DNA from: Escherichia phage LYE-01
Sequence record: PQ303785.1
Reading direction: 5' to 3' (one strand)
DNA length: 64,000 nucleotides
Shown here: one piece after another, positions 3,465 to 55,382 of the stretch
Layout: each line of letters begins with the position of its first letter
How positions within the stretch are numbered: the stretch's first letter is position 1
Made by a program: the position numbers and the translations under genes
The notes under the pieces: generated by a model
What the model was told of the DNA's origin: nothing
The model's input: only the letters and a program-made list of their open reading frames with translations
Database searches by the model: none

Positions 3465-3737
3465 ATGAAAACATTTAAAGAATTTATCAATGAAGCTACT
3501 TTTAACGAAAAAGTAAAAATTAGCAAAGCTGTCAAGACTTTGATTGCTGACATCAATTACCTATATGATATTGATTTAACTGACTATGTAACAGTTGGTA
3601 ACAAACGTAACTTTTTCGTGTTTGACATCTCTGAACTTGACCAGAATCAAATTAACAACATTGAGCGTTTTGCTAATGATAAGGGTCTTCGTCATGAGTC
3701 AGCGGGTTATAAAAAATACGCAATTTATTTAAAATGA
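3465..3737 (+). CDS. internal protein with capsid-targeting leader (IPI locus)
   Basis: ATG at 3465 preceded by GGAGAATAAA; N-terminus MKTFKEFINEA matches the T4 capsid-targeting sequence; sits next to 57B like T4 ipI. Confidence 0.7.
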   Translation: MKTFKEFINEATFNEKVKISKAVKTLIADINYLYDIDLTDYVTVGNKRNFFVFDISELDQNQINNIERFANDKGLRHESAGYKKYAIYLK

Positions 3738-3767
3738 GTTTACTTTTAAATAGGGTTGTGGTACTAT
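3738..3767 (+). promoter_or_regulatory. T4-type early promoter
   Basis: GTTTAC, 18 nt, TACTAT upstream of ORF 3798. Confidence 0.55.
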
Positions 3768-3797
3768 TATCTCATCAAAATTAATTAGGAAAATAAA

Positions 3798-4106
3798 ATG
3801 AAAACATTTAAAGAATTTATCAATGAAGCGGCTGCACCAAAGACATTCGTTATTAATACTCAAGCGAGTCTTGATGATGAGTACGCGGAGGCAATTCTGA
3901 GGTCACTTGCTAAGAACGGCGTTGAAGTAATCGCCTCGGACTTTAAGAAAGGGGCTTCCGAGATGTTTATTTCTATAACTAAAGGATCTAAAGCTAAAAT
4001 CAAATCATCATTCGGTGTTGCTCGTACCGATCAAATCGACAATCATGACTTTAAACAAACTGGTGTTAAACGGCAGAACACAATTGCATCACGCGGAATA
4101 AAATAG
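3798..4106 (+). CDS. IPII-like internal protein paralog with capsid-targeting leader
   Basis: 102 aa, MKTFKEFINEAAAPK...; clearly alignable along its length with the 100-aa ipII product at 11530..11832. Confidence 0.7.
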   Translation: MKTFKEFINEAAAPKTFVINTQASLDDEYAEAILRSLAKNGVEVIASDFKKGASEMFISITKGSKAKIKSSFGVARTDQIDNHDFKQTGVKRQNTIASRGIK

Positions 4107-4116
4107 TTTATAAACC

Positions 4117-4146
4117 GTTTACTTTTAGATGGGGTAGTGATATTAT
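4117..4146 (+). promoter_or_regulatory. T4-type early promoter
   Basis: GTTTAC, 18 nt, TATTAT upstream of ORF 4175. Confidence 0.5.
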
Positions 4147-4174
4147 TACCCTATCAACTACTGAGGAGAATAAA

Positions 4175-4357
4175 ATGAAACGTTGTGAATTAATTCGAAA
4201 TGTTGCTATTGCAATTTCTGCTTCCGCTTTTAGTTTTTCAATGTTTGTTGGATTTATATGCGGATTATTAACTACAGCAGAAAATGTGTTTTCACTTGTA
4301 GTAGCATTTTTAATTGGTTTAATTGCTATCGTTATGGATAAAATTTCTAAAGGTTAA
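4175..4357 (+). CDS. small membrane protein (two predicted TM helices)
   Basis: 60 aa, hydrophobic; GAGGAGAATAAA SD. Confidence 0.55.
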   Translation: MKRCELIRNVAIAISASAFSFSMFVGFICGLLTTAENVFSLVVAFLIGLIAIVMDKISKG

Positions 4358-4359
4358 TA

Positions 4360-4647
4360 ATGATTCTTTATGCGAAAGTATCGTCTATTGAAAATGGATA
4401 TAAATATGATCAAGAAGCAGCTAAAGCCTTGATTGATGATTATGGCATTTTAACATGTTTTGAAGTTGAAAAGGTTTACATTGACCGTTCATCTTCTCAA
4501 GTTAAATTAGTGAAGGAAGACCGTAAATTTAATACAGTAAATTTTGATTTCTTTATTGAAACAGAAAAAGGTCCTCTTGAATACGATATTTTCAAGAATC
4601 CTTTGGGTCTTGAATGCATCGTAAATATGTATCATCATAAATGGTAA
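4360..4647 (+). CDS. hypothetical protein
   Basis: 95-aa ORF immediately after 4175..4357. Confidence 0.5.
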   Translation: MILYAKVSSIENGYKYDQEAAKALIDDYGILTCFEVEKVYIDRSSSQVKLVKEDRKFNTVNFDFFIETEKGPLEYDIFKNPLGLECIVNMYHHKW

Positions 4648-4744
4648 ATATGCTTTAAGAATTATTTGTTATTATTAACTCATATCGCACTGATTAATAC
4701 CCTCTATCATCAAGGGTTCTTATTTGAGAGCCTTTGTTAATAAT

Positions 4745-4817
4745 TGGGAATTAGCCAAGTTGGTAAGGCATAGCACTTTGACTGCTAGATGCAAAGGTTC
4801 GAGTCCTTTATTCCCAG
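4745..4817 (+). tRNA. tRNA-Gln (anticodon UUG)
   Basis: cloverleaf folded by hand: 7-bp acceptor tgggaat/attccca, anticodon loop CT-TTG-AC, GGTTCGAGTCC T-arm. Confidence 0.85.
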
Positions 4818-4818
4818 C

Positions 4819-4905
4819 GCGAGAATGGTCAAATTGGTAAAGGCACAGCACTTAAAATGCTGCGGAATGATTTCCTTGTGGGTTCGAGTCCCACTTCTCG
4901 CACCA
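4819..4905 (+). tRNA. tRNA-Leu (anticodon UAA)
   Basis: acceptor gcgagaa/ttctcgc, anticodon loop CT-TAA-AA, long variable arm, encoded CCA. Confidence 0.85.
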
Positions 4906-4910
4906 AATTT

Positions 4911-4984
<74 letters not shown>

Positions 4985-4994
4985 ATTTAATTTA

Positions 4995-5068
4995 CTCCGT
5001 GTAGCTCAGTTTGGTAGAGCGCCTGATTTGGGATCAGGAGGTCCAAGGTTCAAATCCTTGTATGGAGA
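4995..5068 (+). tRNA. tRNA-Pro (anticodon UGG)
   Basis: anticodon stem cctga/tcagg with loop TT-TGG-GA; GGTTCAAATCC T-arm. Confidence 0.8.
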
Positions 5069-5070
5069 CT

Positions 5071-5160
5071 GGAGGCGTGGCAGAGTGGTTTAATGCACCG
5101 GTCTTGAAAACCGGCAGTCGCTCCGGCGACTCATAGGTTCAAATCCTATCGCCTCCGCCA
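5071..5160 (+). tRNA. tRNA-Ser (anticodon UGA)
   Basis: acceptor ggaggcg/cgcctcc, anticodon loop CT-TGA-AA, long variable arm, encoded CCA. Confidence 0.85.
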
Positions 5161-5165
5161 GTTTT

Positions 5166-5241
5166 GCTGATTTAGCTCAGTAGGTAGAGCAACTCACTTG
5201 TAATGAGAAGGTCGGCGGTTCGATTCCGTCAATCAGCACCA
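5166..5241 (+). tRNA. tRNA-Thr (anticodon UGU)
   Basis: acceptor gctgatt/aatcagc, anticodon loop CT-TGT-AA, encoded CCA. Confidence 0.85.
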
Positions 5242-5242
5242 A

Positions 5243-5317
5243 GGCCCTGTAGCTGGAAGGTTCAAGCAAGCGACTCATAATCGCCAGATGGTGGTTCAAT
5301 TCCACCCAGGGCCACCA
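5243..5317 (+). tRNA. tRNA-Ile (anticodon CAU, presumably lysidine-modified)
   Basis: acceptor ggccctg/cagggcc, anticodon loop CT-CAT-AA; T4 tRNA-Ile carries CAU. Confidence 0.75.
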
Positions 5318-5326
5318 AATTAATTT

Positions 5327-5413
5327 GGGGAGTTATCCCGTAGAGGTAGCGGTGTGGACTGTAAATCCATTGTCATTGCGACTCGGGTGGTTCGACTCCA
5401 TCACTCCCCACCA
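5327..5413 (+). tRNA. tRNA-Tyr-like (anticodon GUA), class II with long variable arm
   Basis: acceptor ggggagt/actcccc, anticodon stem gtgga/tccat with loop CT-GTA-AA, variable-arm hairpin gtc-attgc-gac resembling bacterial tRNA-Tyr, TTCGACT T-loop, CCA; D-stem imperfect. Confidence 0.6.
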
Positions 5414-5417
5414 ATTT

Positions 5418-5492
5418 GGATGTGTAGCTCAATGGCAGAGCGATCGCCTGTTAAGCGATTGGTTATAGGTTCGAATCCTATCACGTCCGCCA
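5418..5492 (+). tRNA. tRNA-Asn (anticodon GUU)
   Basis: acceptor ggatgtg/cacgtcc, D-stem gctc/gagc, anticodon stem atcgc/gcgat with loop CT-GTT-AA, T-arm atagg-ttcgaat-cctat, CCA. Confidence 0.8.
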
Positions 5493-5496
5493 AATC

Positions 5497-5572
5497 CGAG
5501 GCATAGCTCAGAAGGAAGAGCAAGGACCTTCTAAGTCCTAGGTCGTAGGTTCGATCCCTACTGCCTCGACCA
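5497..5572 (+). tRNA. tRNA-Arg (anticodon UCU)
   Basis: acceptor cgaggca/tgcctcg, anticodon stem aggac/gtcct with loop CT-TCT-AA, CCA. Confidence 0.85.
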
Positions 5573-5588
5573 ATTAAGTGAGGAAAAT

Positions 5589-5939
5589 ATGAAAGGTAAT
5601 GTTTATTTAGTAGTTCATGATTTAACATTCTATTTTAATCACAATGACACTGTTATTTCTGAACGTGTAATTAATTTGCTTTATCAGCATGCAGATTATG
5701 TTTATGTCGAAAACGAATATGGACATTGGCAATTTCTCAAAAATCGTTCATTTGGCTTAGATGATTACGAATATTTTGAACGTAAAGACCTTTTAGATAA
5801 AATTCCGTTATCTACACAATATCAAAATCATAAGTCTTTATATAAATGCCGGTTAATTCGAAATGCTGAATCCGCATATGAAGCAATTGATTTATGGCGT
5901 AAACGTCGTGAACAGGTTGATGCTTTAAAAGAATACTAA
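5589..5939 (+). CDS. hypothetical protein
   Basis: 116-aa ORF with GTGAGGAAAAT SD directly after the tRNA array; no GIY-YIG motif, so not segB-like. Confidence 0.55.
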   Translation: MKGNVYLVVHDLTFYFNHNDTVISERVINLLYQHADYVYVENEYGHWQFLKNRSFGLDDYEYFERKDLLDKIPLSTQYQNHKSLYKCRLIRNAESAYEAIDLWRKRREQVDALKEY

Positions 5940-5944
5940 GAAAC

Positions 5945-6245
5945 CGGGTCGCTACCGGTAAGTCGTCGGACTGATGTTCCCTGGAGTATAGTTTCTCCCA
6001 CAGTTTTACTGTGTTCTGATTCTTTACTATCACAGCAGAAACGGCGCACCGAATTATCGATTCGAGGAAATATCTTTGCCATAAGCCGAGTAGCGTTTTT
6101 GACGGAACGTTCGGATATGGTCGAGATATGGCCTTTTAAAAATATTGAGTAGCGTCAACTACTTAATAACCGGGTTCGAATCCCGGCGTTTCGTACAAAC
6201 ACTTGCCTTAGCAGGTGGAACCCCGACAAGGTTGCCGCAAGGCTT
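5945..6245 (+). ncRNA. putative structured stable RNA region (positional analogue of T4 rnaC/rnaD)
   Basis: about 300 nt with no credible ORF between the tRNA array and a terminator; contains a tRNA T-arm-like hairpin ccggg-TTCGAAT-cccgg near 6171-6190. Confidence 0.4.
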
Positions 6246-6247
6246 AG

Positions 6248-6278
6248 CCCCGACCGAAAGGTTGGGGCTTTTTGGTAT
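6248..6278 (+). terminator. intrinsic terminator hairpin
   Basis: ccccgacc-GAAA-ggttgggg followed by CTTTTT. Confidence 0.6.
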
Positions 6279-6322
6279 AAATATAGTAGTATATTAAATC
6301 ACGAATTAAAACAGGAAATAAG

Positions 6323-6796
6323 ATGAAATCATATGCTCAATTTTTAAATGAAGTGGTGTTAAATGAAGCATCCGCTTCAGATGTTCGCGCTGTAGCAACT
6401 GCTGCTATTAAAGCTGGTAAATATTCTTATAAAGATGCTTCTGACGAATCTCGGTACAAGTTCTACGACGATATGAGAGCTGAAGGCTTTGTGGGTAACT
6501 ATGTTACCACCGCCTGGAAAAGCCTGGTTGCTACTGGTGCGGCTTTCGAAAAACCTTCCGGTAAACCTGCTCCTAAGGCTGACCCTAAAGCAGCACAAGA
6601 AAAAAATATTGCTAAAGGAATTATCTCTAGGTATGAAGCAATTCTTAAAGAACTTTTGGTAATTAAGACCGAAGGCCAGAAACTTGCGCGAGCTCATAGT
6701 TTTAAAGATAATCCACATGCTCATGACCTAGAGTATGTGGAAGACCTCCAAAAAATCATCAAAGACCGCATTTGGTCTGCTAAACAAATCAAATAA
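6323..6796 (+). CDS. hypothetical protein with capsid-targeting-like N-terminus
   Basis: 157 aa; MKSYAQFLNEV resembles the MKT(F/Y)KEFIxE leader of internal proteins; AGGAAATAAG SD. Confidence 0.55.
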   Translation: MKSYAQFLNEVVLNEASASDVRAVATAAIKAGKYSYKDASDESRYKFYDDMRAEGFVGNYVTTAWKSLVATGAAFEKPSGKPAPKADPKAAQEKNIAKGIISRYEAILKELLVIKTEGQKLARAHSFKDNPHAHDLEYVEDLQKIIKDRIWSAKQIK

Positions 6797-6805
6797 CATT
6801 CTTAT

Positions 6806-6835
6806 CCCCAGCTGAAAGGTTGGGGCTTTTGGTAT
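6806..6835 (+). terminator. intrinsic terminator hairpin (near-copy of the one at 6248)
   Basis: ccccagc-TGAAA-ggttgggg followed by CTTTTGG; the GAAAGGTTGGGGCTTTT core is shared with 6258-6275. Confidence 0.55.
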
Positions 6836-6934
6836 CTAGGCCTTTCTGGACCTCTCTAGGCATCATTTAGTTTCTACCCTTTATAATATATTATCCTATC
6901 CTTTAATTGCCCCTCCCTGCCCTAGAATTCCCTA

Positions 6935-7036
6935 AAACTTTTCAAAAATTTTTTCACAAAACTGTTTACATCTCTGTTCTTCCGTGGTACTATATCAATA
7001 TTAACTACTGATACAGAAAACAACTTGGAGAATAAA
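6935..7036 (+). repeat. promoter-leader cassette, copy 1 of a dispersed family
   Basis: ATTCCCTAAAAC...TTTTTCACAAAACTGTTTACA...GGTACTATA...ACTGATAC...GGAGAATAAAATG; near-copies at about 21645, 23100, 32680 and 47936. Confidence 0.6.
6964..6993 (+). promoter_or_regulatory. T4-type early promoter
   Basis: GTTTAC, 18 nt, TACTAT. Confidence 0.55.
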
Positions 7037-7300
7037 ATGGATAATTACGGCGAACTGTTTAATTTCTTTATGAAATGCGTTTCAGAAGATTTCGGTCGTA
7101 CAGTGAATGATATTAAAGTCATCGGTCCTGACCATCCGATGTTTGAAACTTACGCAGTAATGGGTAATGAAGACGGTCAGTGGTATACTGTAAAGGTTGT
7201 GATTAACATGTTCACTGCTGAAGGTTATGTTAAACTGTCTTCTAAAGTTTACCATGATAACGACGAAATCGCAGAAGAATATTTCAATAATATGAAATAA
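7037..7300 (+). CDS. hypothetical protein
   Basis: ORF track from 7025; ATG at 7037 follows GGAGAATAAA; 87 aa. Confidence 0.5.
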   Translation: MDNYGELFNFFMKCVSEDFGRTVNDIKVIGPDHPMFETYAVMGNEDGQWYTVKVVINMFTAEGYVKLSSKVYHDNDEIAEEYFNNMK

Positions 7301-7368
7301 GTGTGTACAAACACCAAGGACGGTGTTATTATAGATTTATCAAAACAAATACAGAAACGGAGAAATAA

Positions 7369-7545
7369 ATGACTACTTTAACTATTTGGTTTGACGAAAA
7401 TGAAGAAACATACTGTGTGAACATTGATGAAAGTCCAATGCCTGACTTTGAATCTTCAGATAAGAAGTCGGTTATATCTTGGGCTGAAGGTTATAAAGCA
7501 GCAAAAGGCGATGTTAAAATAGTTTATAAACTCTTTGAAATATAA
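7369..7545 (+). CDS. hypothetical small protein
   Basis: 58-aa ORF (MTTLTIWFDENEETYCV...) with GGAGAAATAA SD; below the ORF-track size cutoff. Confidence 0.4.
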   Translation: MTTLTIWFDENEETYCVNIDESPMPDFESSDKKSVISWAEGYKAAKGDVKIVYKLFEI

Positions 7546-7588
7546 TACTTCCATGGATTTTAAATTTCAATCAACCTAAGGAAATACT

Positions 7589-8182
7589 ATGAACACACTG
7601 AAGAAAATTGTTGAGTTTATTCGCACTAAACTTGGTTCTGCTATGGCTAAAAATCTATCTGTTGAAGAACAGTATACTGCTGCAGCAGCAAAATTACTTG
7701 ATAAAATTAAAGACCTAAAAACTGCTTCTGTTAAATCTATTAATGAAGAAAAACGTATTCGTGAACTTGTTATCGAAAAGAATCGACAAGCCGAATCAAA
7801 AGAGCGTGAAATTCGCAAGCTTCTTTCCGAAGGTCAAGATGTAACAATGCATGCTAAACTCGGTTTGCTATATCGTCGAACAGCTGAGCAGTTGACTACT
7901 AAGGCTGACGGTTATGCTGAAATGCGAATTGAAATCGCCAAGAAAGTAGTTGAGTTAGATGATGCTCGCCAAGAACTTGCAGTTAAATTGGAATATATCC
8001 GTGAAACTCGTGCAGCAAATGCCCTTGGAATTAGTACTGCCGATGATGTAGTTGAAATTGCAGCACTGACCAAGGTTGATATTGAAGATACTCTTGCTCG
8101 AGTTGAAACCTTTAATGGTAATATTTCTGGGGTTGAAACCACCTCTGCCGATGTCCAGGAATATATTAATTCTCTGAAATAA
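7589..8182 (+). CDS. hypothetical coiled-coil protein
   Basis: 197 aa, heptad-rich and charged throughout (possibly PspA-like; not verified). Confidence 0.5.
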
Positions 8183-8187
8183 TGATA

Positions 8188-8203
8188 AGGGGCTTCGGCC
8201 CCT
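8188..8203 (+). terminator. UUCG-tetraloop hairpin
   Basis: aggggc-TTCG-gcccct right after the stop; weak U tract. Confidence 0.45.
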
Positions 8204-8223
8204 ATTACTTGGAGTAAATAGGA

Positions 8224-8832
8224 ATGAGAATGCAAAATGATTTCAATTCAATGTTTGAAGAGTTCCAAAGACAAGTTGATGTTCCAGACCAATTACTAAA
8301 TGCTCTTAAACGTATGGCAGAAGGACGTAATTACTATTGGGGCTCTTCGTATGAAACTGATGAAAGTCTTTCTGGAAGACTTTATAGAGGTAAAAAGTCT
8401 TTAATACGTCCTGGAATACTTATTAACAGTATTGAATCAATTCATTCATTGACATGTGATTTTGATGTTGAATTTACTGATTTCGTTTCTCCTGAATGGA
8501 CAGTTTGTTATTTAAACGACGATTATGATTATCTTGGCATTTATAGTTTAAGTGACGCGTGTTTTAGACGTAATTTACAAAAGTCAAATTTATTTTATAT
8601 TGATACTACGGTAAAATTTCAGGGAAAGAAATATTTCTTTACTCTTATAGTTGACTCTGAAACAAAATATGAAAATAAGCGTATTCTTAGTAAAAAGAAT
8701 ATCTTGACTATTATTGATGATCTTTTTGATAAATTCGTGGAAAATCCTAATTTTGAAAGCGATTTATTACTAGAAAAATTTGTGAAGGAATGCAGAGAAT
8801 ATGTCAAAGCCATCACTATACCTTCCAAGTAA
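8224..8832 (+). CDS. hypothetical protein
   Basis: 202-aa ORF. Confidence 0.5.
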   Translation: MRMQNDFNSMFEEFQRQVDVPDQLLNALKRMAEGRNYYWGSSYETDESLSGRLYRGKKSLIRPGILINSIESIHSLTCDFDVEFTDFVSPEWTVCYLNDDYDYLGIYSLSDACFRRNLQKSNLFYIDTTVKFQGKKYFFTLIVDSETKYENKRILSKKNILTIIDDLFDKFVENPNFESDLLLEKFVKECREYVKAITIPSK

Positions 8833-9193
8833 ACCTGTGAAGTATGAACTAAAGCACCAGATAATTTCTACCGATGTATTAATGGGTCCTGTGGTAGCTG
8901 TATCATTTGTGATTCTGCTGATTGCTGGAATGGTTATAGACGTTATGACTGATATTGAATCTGGTGTAATATTTGGAGCAACACTAATTCTTCCATTAAT
9001 AATTCCACTTTTATTAGTACCTGTAAATTGGGTAGGATACTGGTATCAAGGAAGGCATTATCGTAAACGCGTACGTGATTGGAAAGCTCAGTGTAAAAAG
9101 ATTAAAAAGGAACACCAGCTTAAACTAGATATGTATGAATTTAACGAAATTATGAAATTTGTTAAGGAATCACGATGCAAAAGCCAAAACTAA
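8801..9193 (+). CDS. small membrane protein (tandem paralog 1)
   Basis: 130 aa, two hydrophobic helices; C-terminal EFNEIMKFVKESRCK resembles the C-terminus of the next ORF. Confidence 0.5.
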   Translation: MSKPSLYLPSKPVKYELKHQIISTDVLMGPVVAVSFVILLIAGMVIDVMTDIESGVIFGATLILPLIIPLLLVPVNWVGYWYQGRHYRKRVRDWKAQCKKIKKEHQLKLDMYEFNEIMKFVKESRCKSQN

Positions 9194-9537
9194 ATAAAGT
9201 CAAATATTCGCTTCCTGAGTCATTTTTAATTTTTGCTGTGGCGTTGGCTGCAGCTCTTGCGGGTAGTCTTTTTGGATTGTTAATTGACTGTCTTATTTTA
9301 AACATCGACGGCACAGTAAATATAACAGAAGTTTGGAGTGAACTTCACTATACTAAAATTATTTCATTATTTTCATTCTTTGGTACCATGTTATATTTTC
9401 ATTATGATAATTTTAAAATAAATTGGCAAAGAAAAAAGGATTACAAAATACAATTAAAAGAATATAATAGCTACATGTCTTATATTGAAAATGAATCAAT
9501 GAAAGAGTTTGTGAGTGATTGCAGGAAATTAAAATGA
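9175..9537 (+). CDS. small membrane protein (tandem paralog 2)
   Basis: 120 aa, two hydrophobic helices; C-terminal ENESMKEFVSDCRK. Confidence 0.5.
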   Translation: MQKPKLNKVKYSLPESFLIFAVALAAALAGSLFGLLIDCLILNIDGTVNITEVWSELHYTKIISLFSFFGTMLYFHYDNFKINWQRKKDYKIQLKEYNSYMSYIENESMKEFVSDCRKLK

Positions 9538-9974: not shown

Positions 9975-10505
<531 letters not shown>

Positions 10506-10509
10506 AGTT

Positions 10510-10576: not shown

Positions 10577-10894
10577 ATGAAAACGTTTAAAGAATTTATT
10601 GCAGAATCTGCCCAAGGACAACGTGTAGAAGGCGGTTATATCTGGATTGAACAAGTTGAGCCGCCAAGTCGCACTTCTACAGGTAAATGGAAAATCACTG
10701 TTGATGGTCCTGGTGGTAAACGTAGGACTCTTAAAGAAATTAACGGGTACTATGAAGAAGCTCTTTCTGACGCGGGTACTTATATGATGCAAATCATGAT
10801 TAAAAACCCAGAAAATCGTTTTGCGGCTAGAGTTTTCCGCCGTATTGGAAATAAGCTTTATGATGCATATTCTAAAAACTTCCCTAAAGAATAA
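10577..10894 (+). CDS. internal-protein-like protein with capsid-targeting leader
   Basis: 105 aa, MKTFKEFIAESAQ...; extra capsid-targeted ORF between e and ipIII. Confidence 0.6.
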   Translation: MKTFKEFIAESAQGQRVEGGYIWIEQVEPPSRTSTGKWKITVDGPGGKRRTLKEINGYYEEALSDAGTYMMQIMIKNPENRFAARVFRRIGNKLYDAYSKNFPKE

Positions 10895-10909
10895 AAATAA
10901 AGGAAACAC

Positions 10910-11488
10910 ATGAAAACCTATAAAGAATTTATCGCTGAAGCTTCTGTGGAAAAGGCCAAAGGCATTAATAAGGACGAGTGGAACTATCGTGGTGGAAACG
11001 GCTTTGACCCTAAAACAGCCCCTATTGAACGATACTTAGCTACAAAAGCTTCCGATTTTAAAGCTTTCGCTTGGGAAGGACTTCGCTGGCGTACCGATTT
11101 AAATATTGAAGTTGACGGACTTAAATTTGCTCATATTGAAGATGTTGTTGCTAGTAACTTAGACGCAGCTTTTGTTAAAGCCGACAGTGATCTTCGTCGC
11201 TGGAATTTAAAACTGTTCTCTAAACAAAAAGGCCCGAAGTTTGTGCCTAAAGCCGGTAAATGGGTCATTGATAATAAATTAGCTAAGGCTGTCAACTACG
11301 CTGGTCTTGAATTCGCCAAGCACAAATCATCATGGAAAGGTCTTGATGCAATGGCTTTCCGTAAAGAATTTGCTGATGTTATGGCTAAAGGCGGCTTTAA
11401 GGCAGAAATAGATACCTCTAAAGGTACGTTTAAGGACGCTAATGTTCAGTACGCTTATGCCGTTGCTAATGCAGCCCGTGGTAATTAA
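10910..11488 (+). CDS. ipIII: internal protein III
   Basis: 192 aa (T4 IPIII is 193 aa), MKTYKEFIAEA leader; position next to e. Confidence 0.75.
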   Translation: MKTYKEFIAEASVEKAKGINKDEWNYRGGNGFDPKTAPIERYLATKASDFKAFAWEGLRWRTDLNIEVDGLKFAHIEDVVASNLDAAFVKADSDLRRWNLKLFSKQKGPKFVPKAGKWVIDNKLAKAVNYAGLEFAKHKSSWKGLDAMAFRKEFADVMAKGGFKAEIDTSKGTFKDANVQYAYAVANAARGN

Positions 11489-11529: not shown

Positions 11530-11832
11530 ATGAAAACATTTAAAGAATTTATCACTGAAGCAAAAGCCCCGAAGGTTTTTCAAATTTGTTCACAAGGAAA
11601 TTTAGACAAAGAATACGTTGACGCCATCGTAGCAAGCATTGTCAACCAAGGCGTGCAAGTAGATGCAGTTGAATTTACCAAAGGCCCTACCTTTAATATC
11701 GTTGTATCTAAGGGTTCTTTGGCTAAAATTAAAAAGGCCTGGGGTGTTATGAGAGCTTACCAAGTAGATGATTCTGCTCCCGGGCCGAAAGTACGAATGA
11801 ATACCCTTAAGGGAGGCCGTGAATACGTTTAG
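11530..11832 (+). CDS. ipII: internal protein II
   Basis: 100 aa (T4 IPII is 100 aa), MKTFKEFITEA leader. Confidence 0.75.
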   Translation: MKTFKEFITEAKAPKVFQICSQGNLDKEYVDAIVASIVNQGVQVDAVEFTKGPTFNIVVSKGSLAKIKKAWGVMRAYQVDDSAPGPKVRMNTLKGGREYV

Positions 11833-11910
11833 GCCTATTGTCTATACTTATTAGAATATTATACGGACTACCATGTGCCACGGAATGGCCCAACCTAAAA
11901 GAGAAACTAA

Positions 11911-12450
11911 ATGAGAACATTTTTAACTGGTCCTTATCTATCCCTGATGAATGCTTTTACACACCATTCTGATGCTAGAGTAGAAGAAATTTGTAAAAAC
12001 GATTATATCCCACCATTTGAAGACTTACTCAAGCAGTATTGCACACTTCGATTAGATGGTGGCAGACAATCCGGTAAATCAACTGCTGTGACTAACTTTG
12101 CTGCTAATTGGCTGTATGATGGTGGAACAGTTATTGTTCTTTCTAATACTTCAGCTTACGCTAAAATTTCTGCAGGCCACATTAAAAAAGAATTTTCTCG
12201 TTATTCTGGCGATGATATTCGATTCCGCTTATTTACCGATTCTGTCCGTAGTTTTATTGGTAATAAAGGAAGCAAGTTCAGAGGTTTATCGCTTTCGCGG
12301 ATTTTGTATATAATCGATGAGCCTGTTAAATCTCCTGATATGGATAAAATTTACGATATTCATATTGAAACTGTGCGCCACTGTTGCAATAGTAAATGCT
12401 GCATTGGTGGTATTACTCGTCCACAGTTTTTCATAATCGGAATGCAATGA
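11911..12450 (+). CDS. P-loop NTPase-like protein
   Basis: 179 aa; Walker A-like GGRQSGKST, Walker B-like ILYIIDEP, C-terminal CCNSKCC cluster; occupies the position of T4 denV, but no DenV-like sequence is present. Confidence 0.5.
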   Translation: MRTFLTGPYLSLMNAFTHHSDARVEEICKNDYIPPFEDLLKQYCTLRLDGGRQSGKSTAVTNFAANWLYDGGTVIVLSNTSAYAKISAGHIKKEFSRYSGDDIRFRLFTDSVRSFIGNKGSKFRGLSLSRILYIIDEPVKSPDMDKIYDIHIETVRHCCNSKCCIGGITRPQFFIIGMQ

Positions 12451-48415: not shown

Positions 48416-48422
48416 GGAAAAC

Positions 48423-48674: not shown

Positions 48675-48820
48675 AAAGCAAAATTATAGCAGTGTTGCTT
48701 TTAATCTTGATGATTATAATAAGTATATACTATAGTGTAACGGTTCCTCTTATGATTCCAACGCTTATTATAGGGTGGAGTTTATTACTGTTACAAGTTA
48801 AATATGAATGTATCAATTGA
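48671..48820 (+). CDS. hypothetical small membrane peptide
   Basis: 49-aa hydrophobic ORF; start overlaps imm stop (ATGA). Confidence 0.3.
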   Translation: MKSKIIAVLLLILMIIISIYYSVTVPLMIPTLIIGWSLLLLQVKYECIN

Positions 48821-48827
48821 GGTTTAA

Positions 48828-49568: not shown

Positions 49569-50407
49569 TTCAATTTGTAATTCCAAGTTATCAACGCGTA
49601 GGGGCAGTTTCTGCCCTTGATATGTTTCCGACTGATTATGAACCTCATATTGTAGTACGTGAACATGAAGAAAAAGCTTATTATGACGCTTACGGGTCTA
49701 GAGCTAAAATTATAACTATTCCTGATGATGTTAATGGAATTGCTGGTACTCGTAAAGCAATTACTGATATGTATGCAGGTCAACGAATCTGGATGATTGA
49801 TGATGATACTACTATTCGTATGAGTTCAATGCGAAAGAAAGATGATCGTCGCTGCGTAGATAAAATTAATCAGTTAACCCGTGAGCAGTTCTATGAATTG
49901 ATTCAATACGTTGAAGATGCCATGGATTGCGGGTATTATCATGGTCATGCTCGTCTACCAATTTTTAAAATTACTTCATCTTGGGGTAATTATCGTGAAA
50001 ATTCATATGGATTCACGAATACATGGTATGATTTAGGAAAACTTACAACAGAACAAATTGGGTATGGAAAAATTGATTTATGCGAAGATATGTATGCATT
50101 TCTCAATTTAATTAATCAAGGTTATCCACATTTAGCCTTGTTCAAATATCTGGTTGTATCCGGAAAAGCACAGGCTCCCGGTGGATGCAGCTCAATTCGT
50201 AGTAATTCTAAACATAATAGAGCGCTTGAGCAAATCAATAGAGAGTTTCCAGAGCAAGCTCGTTGGAAAACTTCTAATATTGAAAAACGAAAATCATTAG
50301 GTGAAGAAGACGAGCCATTAAAGGTTCTTCGCATGTGTGTTTCACGCAAAGAAAAATCAGAAGCGTTTCATAAGTTTAATGCTATTCATCCAATAGCGGT
50401 TGATTAA
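49565..50407 (+). CDS. GT-A-fold glycosyltransferase (candidate T2/T6-type beta-glucosyl-HMC alpha-glucosyltransferase)
   Basis: 280 aa with DxD-like WMIDDDT; occupies the T4 bgt position but is not T4 Bgt-like. Confidence 0.55.
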   Translation: MIQFVIPSYQRVGAVSALDMFPTDYEPHIVVREHEEKAYYDAYGSRAKIITIPDDVNGIAGTRKAITDMYAGQRIWMIDDDTTIRMSSMRKKDDRRCVDKINQLTREQFYELIQYVEDAMDCGYYHGHARLPIFKITSSWGNYRENSYGFTNTWYDLGKLTTEQIGYGKIDLCEDMYAFLNLINQGYPHLALFKYLVVSGKAQAPGGCSSIRSNSKHNRALEQINREFPEQARWKTSNIEKRKSLGEEDEPLKVLRMCVSRKEKSEAFHKFNAIHPIAVD

Positions 50408-50485
50408 TGCCTAAATTTATTGTGTTATAATTACTCTATCTTTAACCAGTGAGGAAAATATAATGATGCCTATGGAAAAAAATGA

Positions 50486-51667
50486 ATGTCTATTGCAGAT
50501 TTAAAATCCCGTTTGATTAAAGCTTCCACTTCTAAAATGACTGCTGAACTGACTACATCTAAATTCTTTAATGAAAAGGATGTAATCCGTACAAAAATCC
50601 CAATGCTTAATATCGCTATTTCAGGTGCGATTGACGGTGGTATGCAGTCTGGTTTAACCATTTTTGCAGGTCCTTCTAAACACTTTAAATCAAATATGTC
50701 TTTGACTATGGTTGCGGCGTATTTGAACAAATATCCTGACGCGGTATGTCTATTTTATGATAGCGAATTTGGTATTACTCCAGCTTATTTGCGATCCATG
50801 GGAGTTGACCCGGAACGAGTAATTCATACACCAATCCAGTCAGTTGAACAGCTGAAAATTGATATGGTGAATCAGCTTGAAGCTATTGAGCGCGGTGAAA
50901 AGGTTATTGTATTCATTGACTCAATCGGTAATATGGCTTCTAAGAAAGAAACGGAAGATGCCTTGAATGAAAAATCTGTGGCAGATATGACTCGTGCTAA
51001 ATCACTGAAGTCATTATTCCGTATTGTTACTCCTTATTTTAGTATTAAAAACATTCCGTGTGTTGCGGTTAACCATACAATTGAAACAATTGAAATGTTT
51101 AGTAAAACCGTGATGACAGGTGGTACAGGCGTAATGTATTCGGCTGATACTGTATTCATTATCGGTAAGCGCCAGATTAAAGATGGTTCTGATCTTCAGG
51201 GGTATCAATTTGTTCTAAATGTAGAAAAATCTCGTACCGTTAAAGAAAAAAGTAAATTCTTTATTGATGTTAAATTTGACGGTGGCATCGATCCTTATTC
51301 TGGATTGTTAGATATGGCTCTTGAATTAGGATTTGTGGTAAAACCTAAAAATGGCTGGTATGCTCGTGAATTTCTTGACGAAGAAACTGGCGAGATGATT
51401 CGCGAAGAAAAATCTTGGCGTGCAAAAGATACCAATTGCACTACATTCTGGGGTCCTTTATTTAAGCATCAACCATTCCGAGATGCTATTAAACGTGCTT
51501 ATCAATTAGGTGCTATTGATAGTAATGAAATTGTTGAAGCTGAAGTTGATGAATTAATTAACTCAAAGGTTGAAAAATTTAAATCTCCAGAAAGTAAAAG
51601 TAAATCAGCAGCTGATTTAGAAACTGACCTAGATCAGTTAAGTGATATGGAAGAATTTAATGAATAA
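50486..51667 (+). CDS. uvsX: recombinase UvsX (RecA-like)
   Basis: 393 aa, RecA-type Walker A GPSKHFKS. Confidence 0.95.
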   Translation: MSIADLKSRLIKASTSKMTAELTTSKFFNEKDVIRTKIPMLNIAISGAIDGGMQSGLTIFAGPSKHFKSNMSLTMVAAYLNKYPDAVCLFYDSEFGITPAYLRSMGVDPERVIHTPIQSVEQLKIDMVNQLEAIERGEKVIVFIDSIGNMASKKETEDALNEKSVADMTRAKSLKSLFRIVTPYFSIKNIPCVAVNHTIETIEMFSKTVMTGGTGVMYSADTVFIIGKRQIKDGSDLQGYQFVLNVEKSRTVKEKSKFFIDVKFDGGIDPYSGLLDMALELGFVVKPKNGWYAREFLDEETGEMIREEKSWRAKDTNCTTFWGPLFKHQPFRDAIKRAYQLGAIDSNEIVEAEVDELINSKVEKFKSPESKSKSAADLETDLDQLSDMEEFNE

Positions 51668-51998
51668 AGATGATTTAGATCTAGAAATTATCGACGAATC
51701 CCCCTCTTCGGAGGGGGAAGAAGAAAGAAAAGAACGTCTTTTTAATGAATCTCTTAAGATAATTAAATCTGCCATGGAAAATGTTATCCAGGAGATTGTC
51801 ATTAAACTAGAAGACGGTTCTACACACATTGTGTATGTGACAAAATTAGATTGGGTTGATGGAAAAGTCGTAATGGACTTTGCTGTTCTTGACCAAGAAA
51901 GAAAAGCTGAGTTAGCTCCTCATGTAGAAAAATGTATTACAATGCAACTACAAGATGCATTTAATAAAAGGTCAAAGAAAAAATTTAAATTCTTTTAA
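51660..51998 (+). CDS. 40: head vertex assembly chaperone gp40
   Basis: ATG at 51660 within track ORF 51642..51998; position between uvsX and 41. Confidence 0.75.
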   Translation: MNKDDLDLEIIDESPSSEGEEERKERLFNESLKIIKSAMENVIQEIVIKLEDGSTHIVYVTKLDWVDGKVVMDFAVLDQERKAELAPHVEKCITMQLQDAFNKRSKKKFKFF

Positions 51999-52007
51999 GG
52001 AGTAAGT

Positions 52008-53435
52008 GTGGTAGAAATTATTCTTTCTCATCTCATATTTGATCAAGCTTATTTTTCAAAAGTTTGGCCATATATGGATTCAGAATATTTTGAAAGTGGT
52101 CCAGCTAAAAATACATTCAAATTAATTAAATCTCATGTTAATGAGTACCATAGCGTTCCATCTATTAATGCGTTAAATGTTGCGTTAGAAAATAGTTCAT
52201 TTACTGAAACAGAATATTCTGGTGTAAAAACACTTATTTCAAAACTGGCCGATTCTCCGGAAGACCATAGCTGGTTAGTAAAAGAAACAGAAAAATATGT
52301 TCAGCAAAGGGCGATGTTTAACGCTACATCTAAAATAATTGAAATTCAAACTAATGCTGAGCTTCCTCCGGAAAAACGAAATAAGAAAATGCCAGATGTA
52401 GGTGCTATTCCTGACATCATGCGCCAAGCATTATCAATTTCATTTGATAGTTACGTTGGTCATGATTGGATGGATGACTACGAAGCACGTTGGCTATCTT
52501 ATATGAATAAAGCTCGTAAGGTTCCATTTAAACTCAAAATTCTAAATAAAATTACTAAAGGCGGAGCTGAAACTGGAACACTGAACGTTTTAATGGCTGG
52601 TGTTAACGTTGGTAAGTCATTAGGTCTGTGTTCATTGGCAGCAGATTATTTACAGCTTGGACATAATGTTCTTTACATTTCCATGGAAATGGCAGAAGAA
52701 GTCTGTGCTAAACGTATTGATGCTAATATGCTTGACGTTTCTCTTGATGACATTGATGATGGGCATATTTCTTACGCTGAATATAAAGGAAAAATGGAAA
52801 AATGGCGTGAGAAATCTACTCTTGGACGTTTAATCGTTAAACAGTATCCTACTGGTGGAGCAGACGCTAATACATTTCGTTCTCTTTTGAACGAATTGAA
52901 GCTCAAGAAGAATTTTGTTCCAACAATCATTATTGTCGACTATCTGGGCATTTGTAAATCTTGCCGCATCAGAGTTTATTCGGAAAATAGTTACACAACT
53001 GTTAAAGCCATCGCAGAAGAATTGCGTGCTCTGGCTGTTGAAACTGAAACTGTTCTTTGGACTGCAGCACAGGTTGGTAAGCAAGCTTGGGATTCTTCTG
53101 ATGTTAACATGAGCGATATTGCGGAATCTGCCGGTCTTCCAGCAACAGCCGATTTTATGCTTGCGGTCATTGAAACCGAGGAGTTAGCAGCTGCTGAACA
53201 ACAACTCATTAAGCAAATCAAATCACGATATGGTGATAAGAATAAATGGAATAAGTTTTTGATGGGTGTTCAAAAAGGAAATCAGAAATGGGTAGAAATT
53301 GAACAAGATTCTACTCCAACTGAAGTGAACGAAGTAGCAGGTTCACAACAGATACAAGCTGAACAGAACCGCTATCAAAGAAACGAATCCACTCGAGCTC
53401 AGTTAGATGCTTTGGCGAATGAATTAAAATTTTAG
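52008..53435 (+). CDS. 41: replicative DNA helicase gp41
   Basis: 475 aa, DnaB-like, Walker A GVNVGKS; GTG start. Confidence 0.95.
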   Translation: MVEIILSHLIFDQAYFSKVWPYMDSEYFESGPAKNTFKLIKSHVNEYHSVPSINALNVALENSSFTETEYSGVKTLISKLADSPEDHSWLVKETEKYVQQRAMFNATSKIIEIQTNAELPPEKRNKKMPDVGAIPDIMRQALSISFDSYVGHDWMDDYEARWLSYMNKARKVPFKLKILNKITKGGAETGTLNVLMAGVNVGKSLGLCSLAADYLQLGHNVLYISMEMAEEVCAKRIDANMLDVSLDDIDDGHISYAEYKGKMEKWREKSTLGRLIVKQYPTGGADANTFRSLLNELKLKKNFVPTIIIVDYLGICKSCRIRVYSENSYTTVKAIAEELRALAVETETVLWTAAQVGKQAWDSSDVNMSDIAESAGLPATADFMLAVIETEELAAAEQQLIKQIKSRYGDKNKWNKFLMGVQKGNQKWVEIEQDSTPTEVNEVAGSQQIQAEQNRYQRNESTRAQLDALANELKF

Positions 53436-53463
53436 TTTACAAGCTGACAAGACTATGGTATAG
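53434..53463 (+). promoter_or_regulatory. early promoter with stem-loop (PeSL)
   Basis: GTTTACAAGCTGA, then inverted repeat CAAGACTA ... TAGTCTTG enclosing the -10 TGGTATAGT. Confidence 0.6.
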
Positions 53464-53493
53464 TAGTCTTGTTGGTTAAATGAGGAGATTGTT

Positions 53494-53676
53494 ATGGAAT
53501 TGGTAAAGGTAGTTTTTATGGGGTGGTTTAAGAATGAAAGCATGTTTACTAAAGAAATCACAATGATGAAAGATGACGTTCAATGGGCTACTACTCAATA
53601 TGCTGAAGTTAATAAAGCATTAGTTAAAGCTTTCATTGATGACAAGAAAGTATGCGAAGTGGATTGCCGAGGATAA
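53494..53676 (+). CDS. dmd: Dmd-like antitoxin (61.5)
   Basis: 60 aa, the size of T4 Dmd, first ORF downstream of 41. Confidence 0.6.
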   Translation: MELVKVVFMGWFKNESMFTKEITMMKDDVQWATTQYAEVNKALVKAFIDDKKVCEVDCRG

Positions 53677-53677
53677 T

Positions 53678-53920
53678 ATGCACATTGTTTTATTTAAACC
53701 TACTCCGTATAATGTCAGGAAAAATACTCAATTCAAGGCACTTATTGCGGATACGTGGGAATTGGTGTTAGATATTCCAGCAGAAGAAAGCCCTCCATTT
53801 GGTCGAGTGGAATTTATTAAGTTTGCTGTGCGCCCTACGAAGCGACAGATTCGCCAATGCAAAAGATACTTTCGTAAAATCGTCAAGTTAGAGAAACAGT
53901 TATTGATGCTAGTAAAATAG
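53678..53920 (+). CDS. hypothetical protein
   Basis: about 80 aa from ATG at 53678. Confidence 0.45.
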   Translation: MHIVLFKPTPYNVRKNTQFKALIADTWELVLDIPAEESPPFGRVEFIKFAVRPTKRQIRQCKRYFRKIVKLEKQLLMLVK

Positions 53921-53923
53921 TAG

Positions 53924-53952
53924 TTTACAAGCTGATAGAGTTGTGTTATAGT
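53924..53952 (+). promoter_or_regulatory. early promoter with stem-loop (PeSL)
   Basis: GTTTACAAGCTGATAGAG ... TTCTATCAGCT inverted repeat enclosing the -10 TGTTATAGT. Confidence 0.6.
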
Positions 53953-53986
53953 AATTCTATCAGCTAATCGCGGAGAAAAGAAAATG

Positions 53987-54238
53987 ATGCTAGTTAATAG
54001 AGAATATCAGTTTAAATCAGAAGAAGATTTGGAAAAATTCGCGAGTGGTTGTGAACTGAATAGACGCACAGCTAAAGTCATAGGATTAAAACCCTTTACA
54101 GTTCTAGATTGTGAAGTTTCTAAATTCCGCAGAGGGTGTTCTATTAGCGGTCATGCTCTGGTTGATGGAAACACATTTTTCTTTGTTTTTAGCGTCAGAG
54201 AACTTTTATTGATTAACGAACTTGAGGAAATAAAATAG
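53987..54238 (+). CDS. hypothetical protein
   Basis: 83-84 aa. Confidence 0.45.
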   Translation: MLVNREYQFKSEEDLEKFASGCELNRRTAKVIGLKPFTVLDCEVSKFRRGCSISGHALVDGNTFFFVFSVRELLLINELEEIK

Positions 54239-54296
54239 TTTACTTTTGTTGGAAATTGAGATACTATTATAAACATAAACTACTGAGGAGATTATC

Positions 54297-54590
54297 ATGA
54301 AAAAATTTGTTTTTGCTGCAATTTTTGCTTTAGCTTCTTGCGCTGCTCAGCCTGCTATGGCAGGTTATGATAAAGATTTGTGCGAATGGTCTATGACTGC
54401 AGATCAGACTGAGGTTGAAACTCAGATTGAAGCAGATATTATGAATATCGTTGAGCGTGATCGCCCTGAAATGAAAGCTGAAGTACAAAAACAGCTTAAG
54501 TCTGGTGGTGTAATGCAGTATAATTACGTTCTGTATTGTGATAAAAACTTCAATAATAAAAATATCATCGCTGAAGTGGTAGGTGAATAA
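54297..54590 (+). CDS. sp: Spackle-like periplasmic protein
   Basis: 97 aa with cleavable signal peptide ending AMA; size and 41-61 location match T4 Sp. Confidence 0.6.
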   Translation: MKKFVFAAIFALASCAAQPAMAGYDKDLCEWSMTADQTEVETQIEADIMNIVERDRPEMKAEVQKQLKSGGVMQYNYVLYCDKNFNNKNIIAEVVGE

Positions 54591-55216
54591 TGCTTTATCA
54601 AATGCACAAGTGCAAAGACACGTACAAATATAAAGGTGCCCAGTGTTATATCATTAATCGTGAAAACGCAGGTCCAGGTCATTCGCATCAATCGCGGTTT
54701 GTATTCGTTAAAAACAACGAAATTATAGCAGTTGCTAATTACGTGCTTGTGACTAGTGATGTTAATCCGGTGCCTTTTACATATTATAATCTAATGGACT
54801 TGGCGTACGATTATAATTGGTTTAATCATGACACTTTGGCTCATATCGAAGGCGTAGGATTTGACATCTCTTACTCTAGTTACTCGTTGTGTCCTATGAG
54901 CCGAGCTCATAAAGAGCCTGAATATTTTTCATTTCGGCGGCGCGTAGACTTTAAACGCAGCACAGAGTATATTGGTGGAATCTTTGTTAAAGATAATCGA
55001 ATTACTCGCATTATTTATCCTTTGGGTTGTGGTCAAAAAGATATTGAGGTTGATTTAGACTTTACTGAAAACATCATTAATCATATTGCTTCTGTGTATT
55101 TTGATATTGATCACAAAATTGTAATATGCGGATATGAATTACCATCGGAAAAACAGTTTAAAGTAAAAGTTTCTATTGATGACCAAATTTTTAATGCTTT
55201 TATGAATAGAGGTTAA
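54590..55216 (+). CDS. hypothetical protein (61.1 position)
   Basis: 208-aa ORF. Confidence 0.5.
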   Translation: MLYQMHKCKDTYKYKGAQCYIINRENAGPGHSHQSRFVFVKNNEIIAVANYVLVTSDVNPVPFTYYNLMDLAYDYNWFNHDTLAHIEGVGFDISYSSYSLCPMSRAHKEPEYFSFRRRVDFKRSTEYIGGIFVKDNRITRIIYPLGCGQKDIEVDLDFTENIINHIASVYFDIDHKIVICGYELPSEKQFKVKVSIDDQIFNAFMNRG

Positions 55217-55217
55217 T

Positions 55218-55382
55218 ATGAAAACATATAAAGAATTTATCAAAGAAGATATGGTAGCTGGAGATTCAGGTGGTAATCCTGAAAATATCTCTACTGGAAC
55301 AACGTCAGGCGCTGTAGTAAATAAAGGTCCTGAACAGATTCCTAAAAAGAAAAAAGAGGAATCTAAAGAAAAAGAAGAGTAA
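55218..55382 (+). CDS. mini protein with capsid-targeting leader
   Basis: 54-aa ORF MKTYKEFIKEDMVAGDSGG ... KKKKEESKEKEE with GAGG SD; below track cutoff. Confidence 0.45.
   Translation: MKTYKEFIKEDMVAGDSGGNPENISTGTTSGAVVNKGPEQIPKKKKEESKEKEE

Follow-up and report, generated by a model that had tools for sequence, protein, structure and literature searches.

The genome of Escherichia phage LYE-01 (PQ303785.1) was analysed over a stretch of 64,000 nucleotides (nt), here called the window, for genes whose products begin with the capsid-targeting leader of the T4 internal proteins (Ips). Seven open reading frames (ORFs), named after the position of their first nucleotide, carry this leader of ten amino acids (aa):

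3465..3737, + strand: Ip9, 90 aa, with possible cleavage by gp21 after Glu10 and Glu15
3798..4106, + strand: Ip7, 102 aa (phrog_2667)
6323..6796, + strand: leader-bearing protein, 157 aa (RB32ORF133c / bas37_0244 / phrog_2280 family)
10577..10894, + strand: Ip10, 105 aa, by homology to the 'ip10 internal head protein' of PP01
10910..11488, + strand: IpIII ortholog, 192 aa, 94% identical to T4 IPIII over 192 aa
11530..11832, + strand: Ip7-family paralog in the T4 ipII position, 100 aa (phrog_2667, shared with ORF 3798)
55218..55382, + strand: gp61.1, 54 aa, with the leader at 1-10, an Ile-Lys-Glu site, a core resembling the N-arm of gp23 at 11-42 and a Lys-rich tail at 43-54

Coordinates and lengths agree exactly with a preliminary description of the window. 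A six-frame scan found the leader motif in these seven ORFs and in no others, a degenerate DNA pattern for the leader gave 7 matches where 0.00 were expected from 100 dinucleotide-preserving shuffles, and a ribosome-binding site of the AGGA/GGAG type lies 5-10 nt upstream of each ORF, which confirms the set of seven. All leaders (7/7) have Phe or Tyr at position 4, Phe at position 7, Ile or Leu at position 8 and Glu at position 10. Experiments showed that targeting depends on positions 4 and 7 and processing on positions 8 and 10, and that residues 1-10 of IPIII are enough for incorporation into the head (PMC9026906). Since these critical positions are kept in 7/7 ORFs, we regard the leaders as genuine T4-type capsid-targeting sequences. 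The same 10-residue leader with the same critical residues is found in T4 IPI, IPII and IPIII. Pfam and NCBIfam scans of all seven proteins gave nothing significant. Our explanation of the whole set, to which we assign a probability of about 0.7, is that six of the ORFs are Ip cassettes and that ORF 55218 is gene 61.1, the product of which would be a gp21 substrate in the prohead.

Internal proteins at the two classical loci

The window belongs to a T2/RB32-like Tequatrovirus. Its stretch 3000-12500 matches about 1,200 records of T4-like phages, the best with 93-95% identity, and its + strand corresponds to the minus strand of T4. The genes follow each other in the order gene 2/3/1/57A region, ipI locus, tRNAs, e and ipIII, then genes 41, 61 and soc. 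Relative to T4, ipI, ipII, denV (endonuclease V), e.7, e.2, segB and trna.3 are missing from the window. The two loci at which T4 encodes IPI, IPII and IPIII, next to 57B and downstream of e, are both present in the window.

At the ipI locus, ORF 3465 is 94% identical to Ip9 of RB32 and falls into phrog_7673 ('internal head protein'); its homologs were found in 193 phage records, some of which are annotated ip9. ORF 3798 is 97-98% identical over its full length to ip7 of T2 and RB32, and its family occurs in 283 records. The same Ip9-Ip7 pair is described in the curated record of RB32, where it is preceded by Ip5 and 'flanked by 43 bp direct repeat'. Downstream of e, ORF 10577 shares 97% of its residues with ip10 of PP01 and about 70% with ip10 of VR20/VR25 (189 records). 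ORFs 3798, 3465 and 10577 therefore belong to the same families as Ip7, Ip9 and Ip10, which, together with Ip4 and Ip5, are listed for T2, RB32, K3, RB15, PP01 and VR phages; we took this set from Repoila et al. 1994, as cited in PMC12373910, and from GenBank annotations. The preliminary description had seen an unrecognised expansion of the repertoire in the window. This view had to be given up, since Ip7, Ip9, Ip10 and IpIII have already been named and Ip7, Ip9 and Ip10 occur in 189-283 records each. The comparison with IPI, IPII and IPIII that it had proposed identified ORF 10910 as IpIII (94%). ORFs 3465, 3798, 10577, 11530 and 6323 showed no detectable similarity to Ip1-3 outside the leader.

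The gene at the ipII position requires a separate assignment. ORF 11530 is 52% identical to ORF 3798 over 82 aa (E 2e-25) and 49-52% identical to the ip7 family of T2, RB32 and ORF 3798 (E about 1e-25). The earlier claim that ORF 3798 is an ipII paralog thus holds in so far as it is a clear paralog of ORF 11530, but ORF 11530 is ipII by position only. Its identification as ipII was rejected, as it matches T4 IPII only over residues 1-12, that is, in the leader, and the same applies to ORF 3798. The nearest relatives of ORF 11530 are found in Klebsiella phages UTI-K4 and KP01 (91-92%), followed by the 'ip7' genes of Klebsiella and JS98/VR-type phages (66-77%). Only about 3 of the 283 Ip7-containing records hold two members of the family. 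Judged by these relationships, the window holds a T2-type Ip7 at the ipI locus and, in the ipII slot, a second type of Ip7 that was imported; this second, divergent Ip7 is what it adds to the Ip sets of the T2/RB32 type. The adjoining homolog of vs.8 (11832-12450) begins at residue 38 of the T4 protein. As denV and ipII are also missing, the segment from ipII through denV to the 5' part of vs.8 has been replaced by the Ip7-type cassette.

That Ips are injected anti-restriction proteins, as stated in the preliminary description, is the established view (PMC3012670; PMC12373910; HIDEN-SEQ preprint 10.1101/2025.11.20.689424). Ip1, Ip2 and Ip3 each inhibit a distinct GmrSD type IV enzyme (PMC12373910). 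Similarly, the leader-bearing protein Bas37_0260, encoded at the ipI locus of phage KarlGJung, was reported to inhibit McrBC (HIDEN-SEQ preprint 10.1101/2025.11.20.689424). A two-gene ipI locus, the leader and the logic of counteracting type IV restriction are common to Bas37 and the window, whereas the locus carries Ip5 and 0260 in Bas37 and Ip9 and Ip7 in the window. In the six Ip-type ORFs the leader would attach the precursor to the prohead's scaffolding core. The protease gp21, which cleaves after Glu (PMC5694885), would then cut after Glu10 and, in Ip9 and the product of ORF 6323, possibly also after Glu15. The mature bodies would stay with the DNA and be injected with it, and by analogy with Ip1-3 and Bas37_0260 each of them most likely blocks one type IV restriction enzyme. 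Packaging, cleavage and an anti-restriction role are thus proposed for the Ips of the window on the grounds of family membership and analogy.

Because each characterised Ip disarms a specific type IV restriction enzyme, Ip9, Ip7, the second Ip7 type, Ip10, IpIII and the family of ORF 6323 are ready candidates for type IV restriction screens. That leader-bearing Ips form a hypervariable repertoire and counteract restriction is already known. With regard to family membership, two points are new: the ORF 6323 family is likely to be an Ip family, and Ip7 is present twice, which is unusual.

Around the Ip genes of the ipI locus, sequence comprising a promoter-like site, a Shine-Dalgarno (SD) site and the start of a gene recurs three times:

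3400..3496, + strand: regulatory and leader block of the Ip9 cassette, with an early-type promoter look-alike (TTTACA-17-TACTAT with TG) at 3400-3428, SD and leader codons
3755..3829, + strand: second promoter/SD/leader repeat copy, belonging to the Ip7 cassette (repeat families D1 and D3)
4134..4206, + strand: third, degenerate promoter/SD/start repeat copy at the start of trna.4 (families D1, 69%, and D3, 92%)

Within these blocks, a 42-nt repeat at 3455-3496 is 98% identical to 3788-3829 and 69% identical to 4165-4206. A promoter-like site was also noted at 4118-4146, beside the trna.4 ortholog. The degenerate third copy at trna.4 is the downstream edge of the ipI cassette array. At the e locus of another phage, ECO07P2, a 93-aa Ip5-like leader-bearing protein (ECO07P2_00032, MKTYSEFLSE) is encoded between e and Ip10; it is absent from the window.

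ORF 6323 after the tRNA cluster

ORF 6323 lies at a third site, after the tRNA cluster and outside the two classical Ip loci, and is accompanied by the following elements:

6243..6272, + strand: upstream terminator hairpin, left copy of a 30-nt flanking direct repeat, with a 10-bp stem (7 G-C pairs) followed by a T run
6276..6283, + strand: T4 late-promoter core TATAAATA without mismatch, 47 nt upstream of ORF 6323
6801..6830, + strand: downstream terminator hairpin, right copy of the flanking repeat, from repeat comparison and terminator scan

The encoded protein is 84% identical to RB32ORF133c, and the RB32 record describes this gene as 'flanked by 34 bp imperfect direct repeat', in agreement with the 30-nt hairpin pair of the window. 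The family was found in 511 phage records and has a patchy distribution, being absent from T4. In 40 of 40 sampled annotation rows it was 'hypothetical' or unannotated. The ratio of nonsynonymous to synonymous substitution rates (dN/dS) was 0.04-0.13 in six pairwise comparisons, and ORF 6323 is therefore a real gene under purifying selection. In an AlphaFold2 model (mean predicted local distance difference test score, pLDDT, 72), residues 1-15 are disordered; after them come a three-helix domain modelled with confidence, a linker rich in Pro and Lys, and a helical hairpin.

From these features, its leader and its relatives, ORF 6323 is probably an unnamed Ip at a third cassette site. It might also be argued that the gene encodes a late cytoplasmic or structural protein with an N-terminus that only resembles the leader and does not serve packaging via the scaffolding core. 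Its leader, MKSYAQFLNE, is the most divergent of the seven (18-22 of 30 nt identical to the others), no member of the family was labelled Ip in the sampled records, and the position outside the two classical loci would also fit such a protein. However, relatives of ORF 6323 carry the canonical leaders MKTYNEFLNE and MKSYAEFLTE, positions 4, 7, 8 and 10 are conserved in ORF 6323 itself, and an indel in the family deletes exactly the five residues that separate two candidate gp21 sites, FLNE and VLNE, each with cleavage after Glu. In addition, the gene has a late promoter, its leader is predicted to be disordered, and its ortholog in Bas37 neighbours another leader-bearing gene. On balance we consider the cytoplasmic or structural alternative unlikely. 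The 511 genomes with a member of the family should probably have it annotated as an Ip.

Several observations weigh against the assignment of the six genes to functional Ip cassettes. Bas37_0260 has no ortholog among the ORFs of the window, its best match being one of 32% over 50 aa in which the leader is included, and the genes at the ipI locus were rejected as its equivalents. For ORF 6323, Pfam, NCBIfam and Foldseek searches (PDB, BFVD) gave no functional clue, with Foldseek returning only its own family and PDB matches with E > 1. Furthermore, a sigma-70 scan recovered the early-type site at 3400-3428 before Ip9 but not the look-alikes read by eye before Ip7 and Ip10, and promoter look-alikes were no commoner in the scanned stretch than by chance (33 vs 29.1). 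Therefore, all promoter assignments except the exact late core are look-alikes only.

The exact core TATAAATA occurs 7 times on this strand in the 64 kb; besides the copy at 6276, three copies precede e (two) and soc. The two copies at e (9977-9997) are 13 nt apart and lie directly upstream of this lysozyme gene. Late read-through from them into Ip10, IpIII and the Ip7 paralog is possible, none of which has a core of its own.

Two further observations concern the site after the tRNAs. In Bas37, the ortholog of ORF 6323 adjoins bas37_0243, which encodes a leader-bearing protein of 187 aa (MKTYAEFLTE) and is absent from the window, and the site after the tRNAs looks like a third Ip hotspot. The tRNA cluster itself (4745-5572) comprises ten genes (Gln, Leu, Gly, Pro, Ser, Thr, Met(cat), Tyr, Asn and Arg) compared to eight in T4, with Tyr and Asn as the additional ones, and is not interrupted by segB.

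Proposed cassette exchange at the leader

The preliminary description had proposed that blocks of about 30 nt of nearly identical leader sequence allow the exchange of cassettes. Over codons 1-10, the six ORFs other than ORF 6323 share 25-30 of 30 nucleotides among themselves. The longest exact run, of 38 nt, is shared by ORFs 3465 and 3798, and ORF 11530 shares 25 nt with each of them. The remaining pairs among the six ORFs have exact runs of 12-15 nt, and the pairs with ORF 6323 have runs of 6-9 nt. The block length is thus appropriate for ORFs 3465, 3798 and 11530 and generous for the rest.

Exchange as such is nevertheless supported: the block of promoter, SD and leader offers homology for swapping bodies between loci and phages. 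First, this block is repeated three times at the ipI locus. Second, comparison of ORF 6323 with RB32 revealed zero synonymous differences in codons 1-15, while the synonymous substitution rate (dS) in the body exceeds 1. Third, the Ip7 family is found at two loci and in phages of two host genera. Fourth, the curators of the RB32 record noted the 43-bp and 34-bp flanking repeats. Finally, homologs of the Ip9 body (residues ~8-30 to ~90, 33-49% identity) were found in the unrelated phages M01 and KS_S4 and in Kuttervirus-like Salmonella phages, with genomes of 45-58 kb and of about 150-157 kb. These matches exclude the capsid-targeting leader, which indicates that the effector domain circulates independently of it.

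The conservation of the leader at the nucleotide level could also result from selection for translation initiation or from mobile regulatory cassettes, without the leader being a substrate for effector exchange. In line with this, the repeat reaches upstream into the SD and the promoter, and its degenerate copy precedes trna.4 rather than an Ip. Mobile regulatory cassettes that shuffle T4-type genes have been described (PMC2839356), and an inserted gene in phage Lutter has the same 27-nt middle promoter on both sides. However, members of the same Ip family are found at different loci and in different genera, with the leader as the junction, and a stretch of codons free of synonymous change beside a saturated body, as in ORF 6323, is expected of a recombination junction. 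Moreover, the regulatory-cassette and exchange readings are not mutually exclusive. We therefore regard an explanation by selection or regulatory cassettes in place of exchange as possible but doubtful.

gp61.1 and the N-arm of gp23, the major capsid protein

ORF 55218 had been described as a mini protein at an unusual locus. Instead, it is the conserved T4 gene 61.1: the product is 96% identical to T4 gp61.1 over all 54 residues, and T4's own gp61.1 also bears the leader (MKTFKEFIKE). The stop codon lies 2 nt before the start of gene 61, which encodes primase. A tblastn search found gp61.1 in 1,396 records, from phages of Escherichia, Klebsiella, Acinetobacter, Aeromonas and others, and in 6 of 6 loci examined the gene was located directly upstream of gene 61 or one small ORF away. 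By this distribution, 61.1 is present in nearly all Straboviridae, at a fixed position relative to the primase gene. Its translation is suggested by deep amino-acid conservation and a good SD site.

Some records name gp61.1 'major capsid domain-containing protein', and this name prompted a direct comparison with the major capsid protein gp23. Residues 2-38 of gp61.1 align without gaps to residues 57-93 of T4 gp23, with 16 of 37 positions identical (43%) and Glu10 on Glu65. The Smith-Waterman score was 80, compared to 29 +/- 4.4 (maximum 55) in 5,000 composition-preserving shuffles. A search of the PDB with gp61.1 returned gp23 as the top match, and a profile of 16 family members found gp23 as the only match (E 1.4e-5). 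In these alignments residue 11 of gp61.1 falls on residue 1 of the deposited 456-residue mature gp23* chains. It has been reported that gp21 removes 65 N-terminal residues of gp23, that residues 66-105 lie inside the immature shell, according to the authors probably in contact with the scaffolding core, before they become the external N-arm/N-fist, and that mutations affecting length control map to A66, A94 and G97 (PMC9546572). On the basis of the alignments, the body of gp61.1 is a paralog of gp23 residues 57-95. The two proteins share the end of the propeptide, the gp21 site Glu65/Ala66 (a slash marks cleavage) and the N-arm (66-105), with the cleavage Glu in register. They differ in that gp61.1 has a Lys-rich tail, is encoded in an early primase operon and lacks an HK97-fold body. 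As only gp23 57-95 is covered, the record name overstates the relation; gp61.1, with 54 aa and without the A, P and I domains of the HK97-fold body, was rejected as a major capsid protein of the gp23 type.

The gp23 N-arm segment is almost invariant from T4 to phages of Aeromonas and Acinetobacter, with gp61.1 of all these lineages aligning to it. We asked whether gp61.1 tracks the N-arm of its own phage's gp23, but the gp23 segment was too invariant to discriminate. A divergent short form of gp61.1, KTFNEFLKE/AEVSGDSGG, is still closer to gp23, QAFGSFLTE/AEIGGDHGY. An exhaustive profile search, with clustering at 50% identity, yielded 51 clusters that comprise short forms (50-70 aa, phrog_1823) and long forms (120-250 aa, phrog_2086). 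In RB16 and Acinetobacter phage Octan, gp61.1 is about 160 aa long and has a conserved N-domain of about 110 aa followed by the same core, which explains the match to phrog_2086. A Pfam scan of long-form gp61.1 gave nothing significant. Among 64 parsed members of the superfamily, all 64 have a Glu 1-2 residues before the MVAGD core, and at least 52 have Leu, Ile, Met, Val or Phe two residues before that Glu (P3). The part N-terminal to the site is 4 to 142 residues long, nearly all tails are basic, and many deeply divergent short forms begin with MK(T/S)F.(E/D)F(V/L). In the conserved unit, therefore, a variable N-terminal part, which is the Ip leader in T-even phages, precedes a hydrophobic-x-Glu site; this is followed by a copy of about the first 30 residues of mature gp23, from its N-arm, and by a basic tail. 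In three metagenomic sequences (P0048, P0064 and P0069), the gp61.1 core and basic tail are followed in one ORF by a second leader-like motif, …KMNEVSNFKQFVE…, and an extra domain of about 90 aa, an arrangement that may reflect fusion with a downstream Ip-like gene or a gene call extended by read-through.

The most economical reading, which we put forward tentatively and rate at somewhat less than even odds, is that gp61.1 gains entry to the prohead by its imitation of the scaffold-facing segment of gp23 and is a substrate of gp21. There it would act as a capsid-protein mimic, with a role related to assembly or maturation, and the peptide predicted to start at residue 11 would read DMVAGDSGGNPENIS(T/I)GTTSGAVVNK. 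Similar behaviour is known from the small proteins gp67 and gp68 and from the short, 10-residue propeptide of gp24, which become part of the scaffolding core and are cleaved by gp21 behind a Glu. In the gp24 propeptide (MAKINELLRE/S), hydrophobic residues and Glu are spaced as in the leader. However, gp67 and gp68 have no sequence homology to gp61.1 and are proven in proheads, whereas the placement of gp61.1 there is inferred. The N-termini of T4 gp22 (MLKEQLIAE/A) and gp24 both end in hydrophobic-hydrophobic-x-Glu with the spacing of the Ip leader, which may point to a code for docking and cleavage that prohead proteins have in common.

A prohead role of gp61.1 is made less certain by its expression and by its size. 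No late-promoter core is present within 38 kb upstream of 61.1 on this strand, and in a time-course study of T4 its mRNA was classed as 'early' and the protein was undetected in the proteome; the mRNAs of ipII and ipIII were also 'early' (PMC9697503 supplement). gp61.1 was also not found in the T4 virion mass-spectrometry supplements (PMC5694885). A processed gp61.1 of about 44 residues might escape through capsomer pores, as judged by published pore sizes (PMC9546572), so that it would not be retained. Furthermore, the residue after the cleavage site (P1') is Asp in gp61.1 and Ala, Ser or Val in the six other leader-bearing ORFs.

According to the preliminary description, gp61.1 would be an ordinary injected anti-defence effector of the Ip type, only unusually small and at an unusual locus. 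Its leader is indeed canonical at all four critical positions, its basic tail resembles the Lys-rich, DNA-contacting Ips (PMC3012670), and its mRNA belongs to the same early class as ipII and ipIII. On the other hand, a patchy distribution at swap-prone hotspots was found for ORFs 3465, 3798, 10577, 10910 and 11530 and is typical of Ip families (189-511 records), but not for gp61.1 with its roughly 1,400 genomes and its synteny with primase. The core of gp61.1 is almost invariant and paralogous to gp23, and distant orthologs have a domain of about 110 aa in place of the leader. An ordinary Ip is thus a very improbable identity for gp61.1.

Another explanation places gp61.1 in the cytoplasm, either as an early decoy of the N-terminal region of gp23 or as a modulator of gp21 on non-capsid targets. 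A decoy would pre-empt a host factor that recognises nascent or processed gp23, namely a capsid-sensing defence, a protease or a chaperone step. The early mRNA, the lack of a nearby late promoter and the mimicry of a nearly invariant gp23 segment would suit this explanation. Yet gp21 is active only inside assembled proheads, and we know of no defence system that reads gp23 residues 57-95. Decoy substrates are conceivable, since cyclic-oligonucleotide-based antiphage signalling systems (CBASS) are reported in a 2026 preprint to be proteolytically activated by phage protease enzymes (PMC12991175). The invariant hydrophobic-x-Glu junction, in contrast, argues for processing by gp21, and the leader of gp61.1 is the one proven to direct prohead entry (PMC9026906). 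We consider a cytoplasmic role improbable and retain the prohead substrate as the preferred reading.

The alignment with gp23 may bear on the leader itself. The likeness of the Ip leader to gp23 56-66 and to the gp24 propeptide suggests, as a hypothesis only, that the tag mimics the end of a capsid propeptide. In a more far-reaching form, gp61.1 would be a prohead-targeted mimic of the gp23 maturation site and N-arm that reveals the origin of the capsid-targeting sequence. The Ip leader would then correspond to the final ~10 residues of the gp23 propeptide (AQAFGSFLTE/A in gp23 vs MKTYQEFIAE/A), foreign proteins would enter the head by imitating the docking of gp23 on the scaffold and its presentation to gp21, and gp61.1 would tune maturation or fill empty N-arm docking sites next to the vertices or the portal. 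We regard this extended proposal as rather unlikely.

Apart from family membership, the link between gp61.1 and gp23 is the only new element in a finding that is otherwise mostly ordinary for a T-even genome. The link appears only as an automatic protein name, and a literature search for gp61.1, key older reviews not included, returned genome-description papers only. As a conserved but ignored gene of 54 codons, 61.1 offers a testable probe of recruitment to and cleavage in the T4 prohead, and it may explain the origin of the targeting tag that is widely used to load cargo into T4 heads.

One regulatory element overlaps the start of the gene:

55193..55219, + strand: MotA-type middle-promoter look-alike AATGCTTTTATGAATAGAGGTTAATAT, the -10 element of which overlaps the 61.1 start codon

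A 27-mer identical to this stretch is annotated as a promoter in phage Lutter. Because of the overlap of the -10 element with the start codon, the promoter would serve gene 61 and not 61.1. In Lutter, copies of the MotA-type promoter that are identical in 26 of 27 nt (2118-2144 and 2476-2502) flank an extra gene of 118 aa between 61.2 and 61.1, a case in which an insertion is accompanied by duplication of a regulatory cassette.

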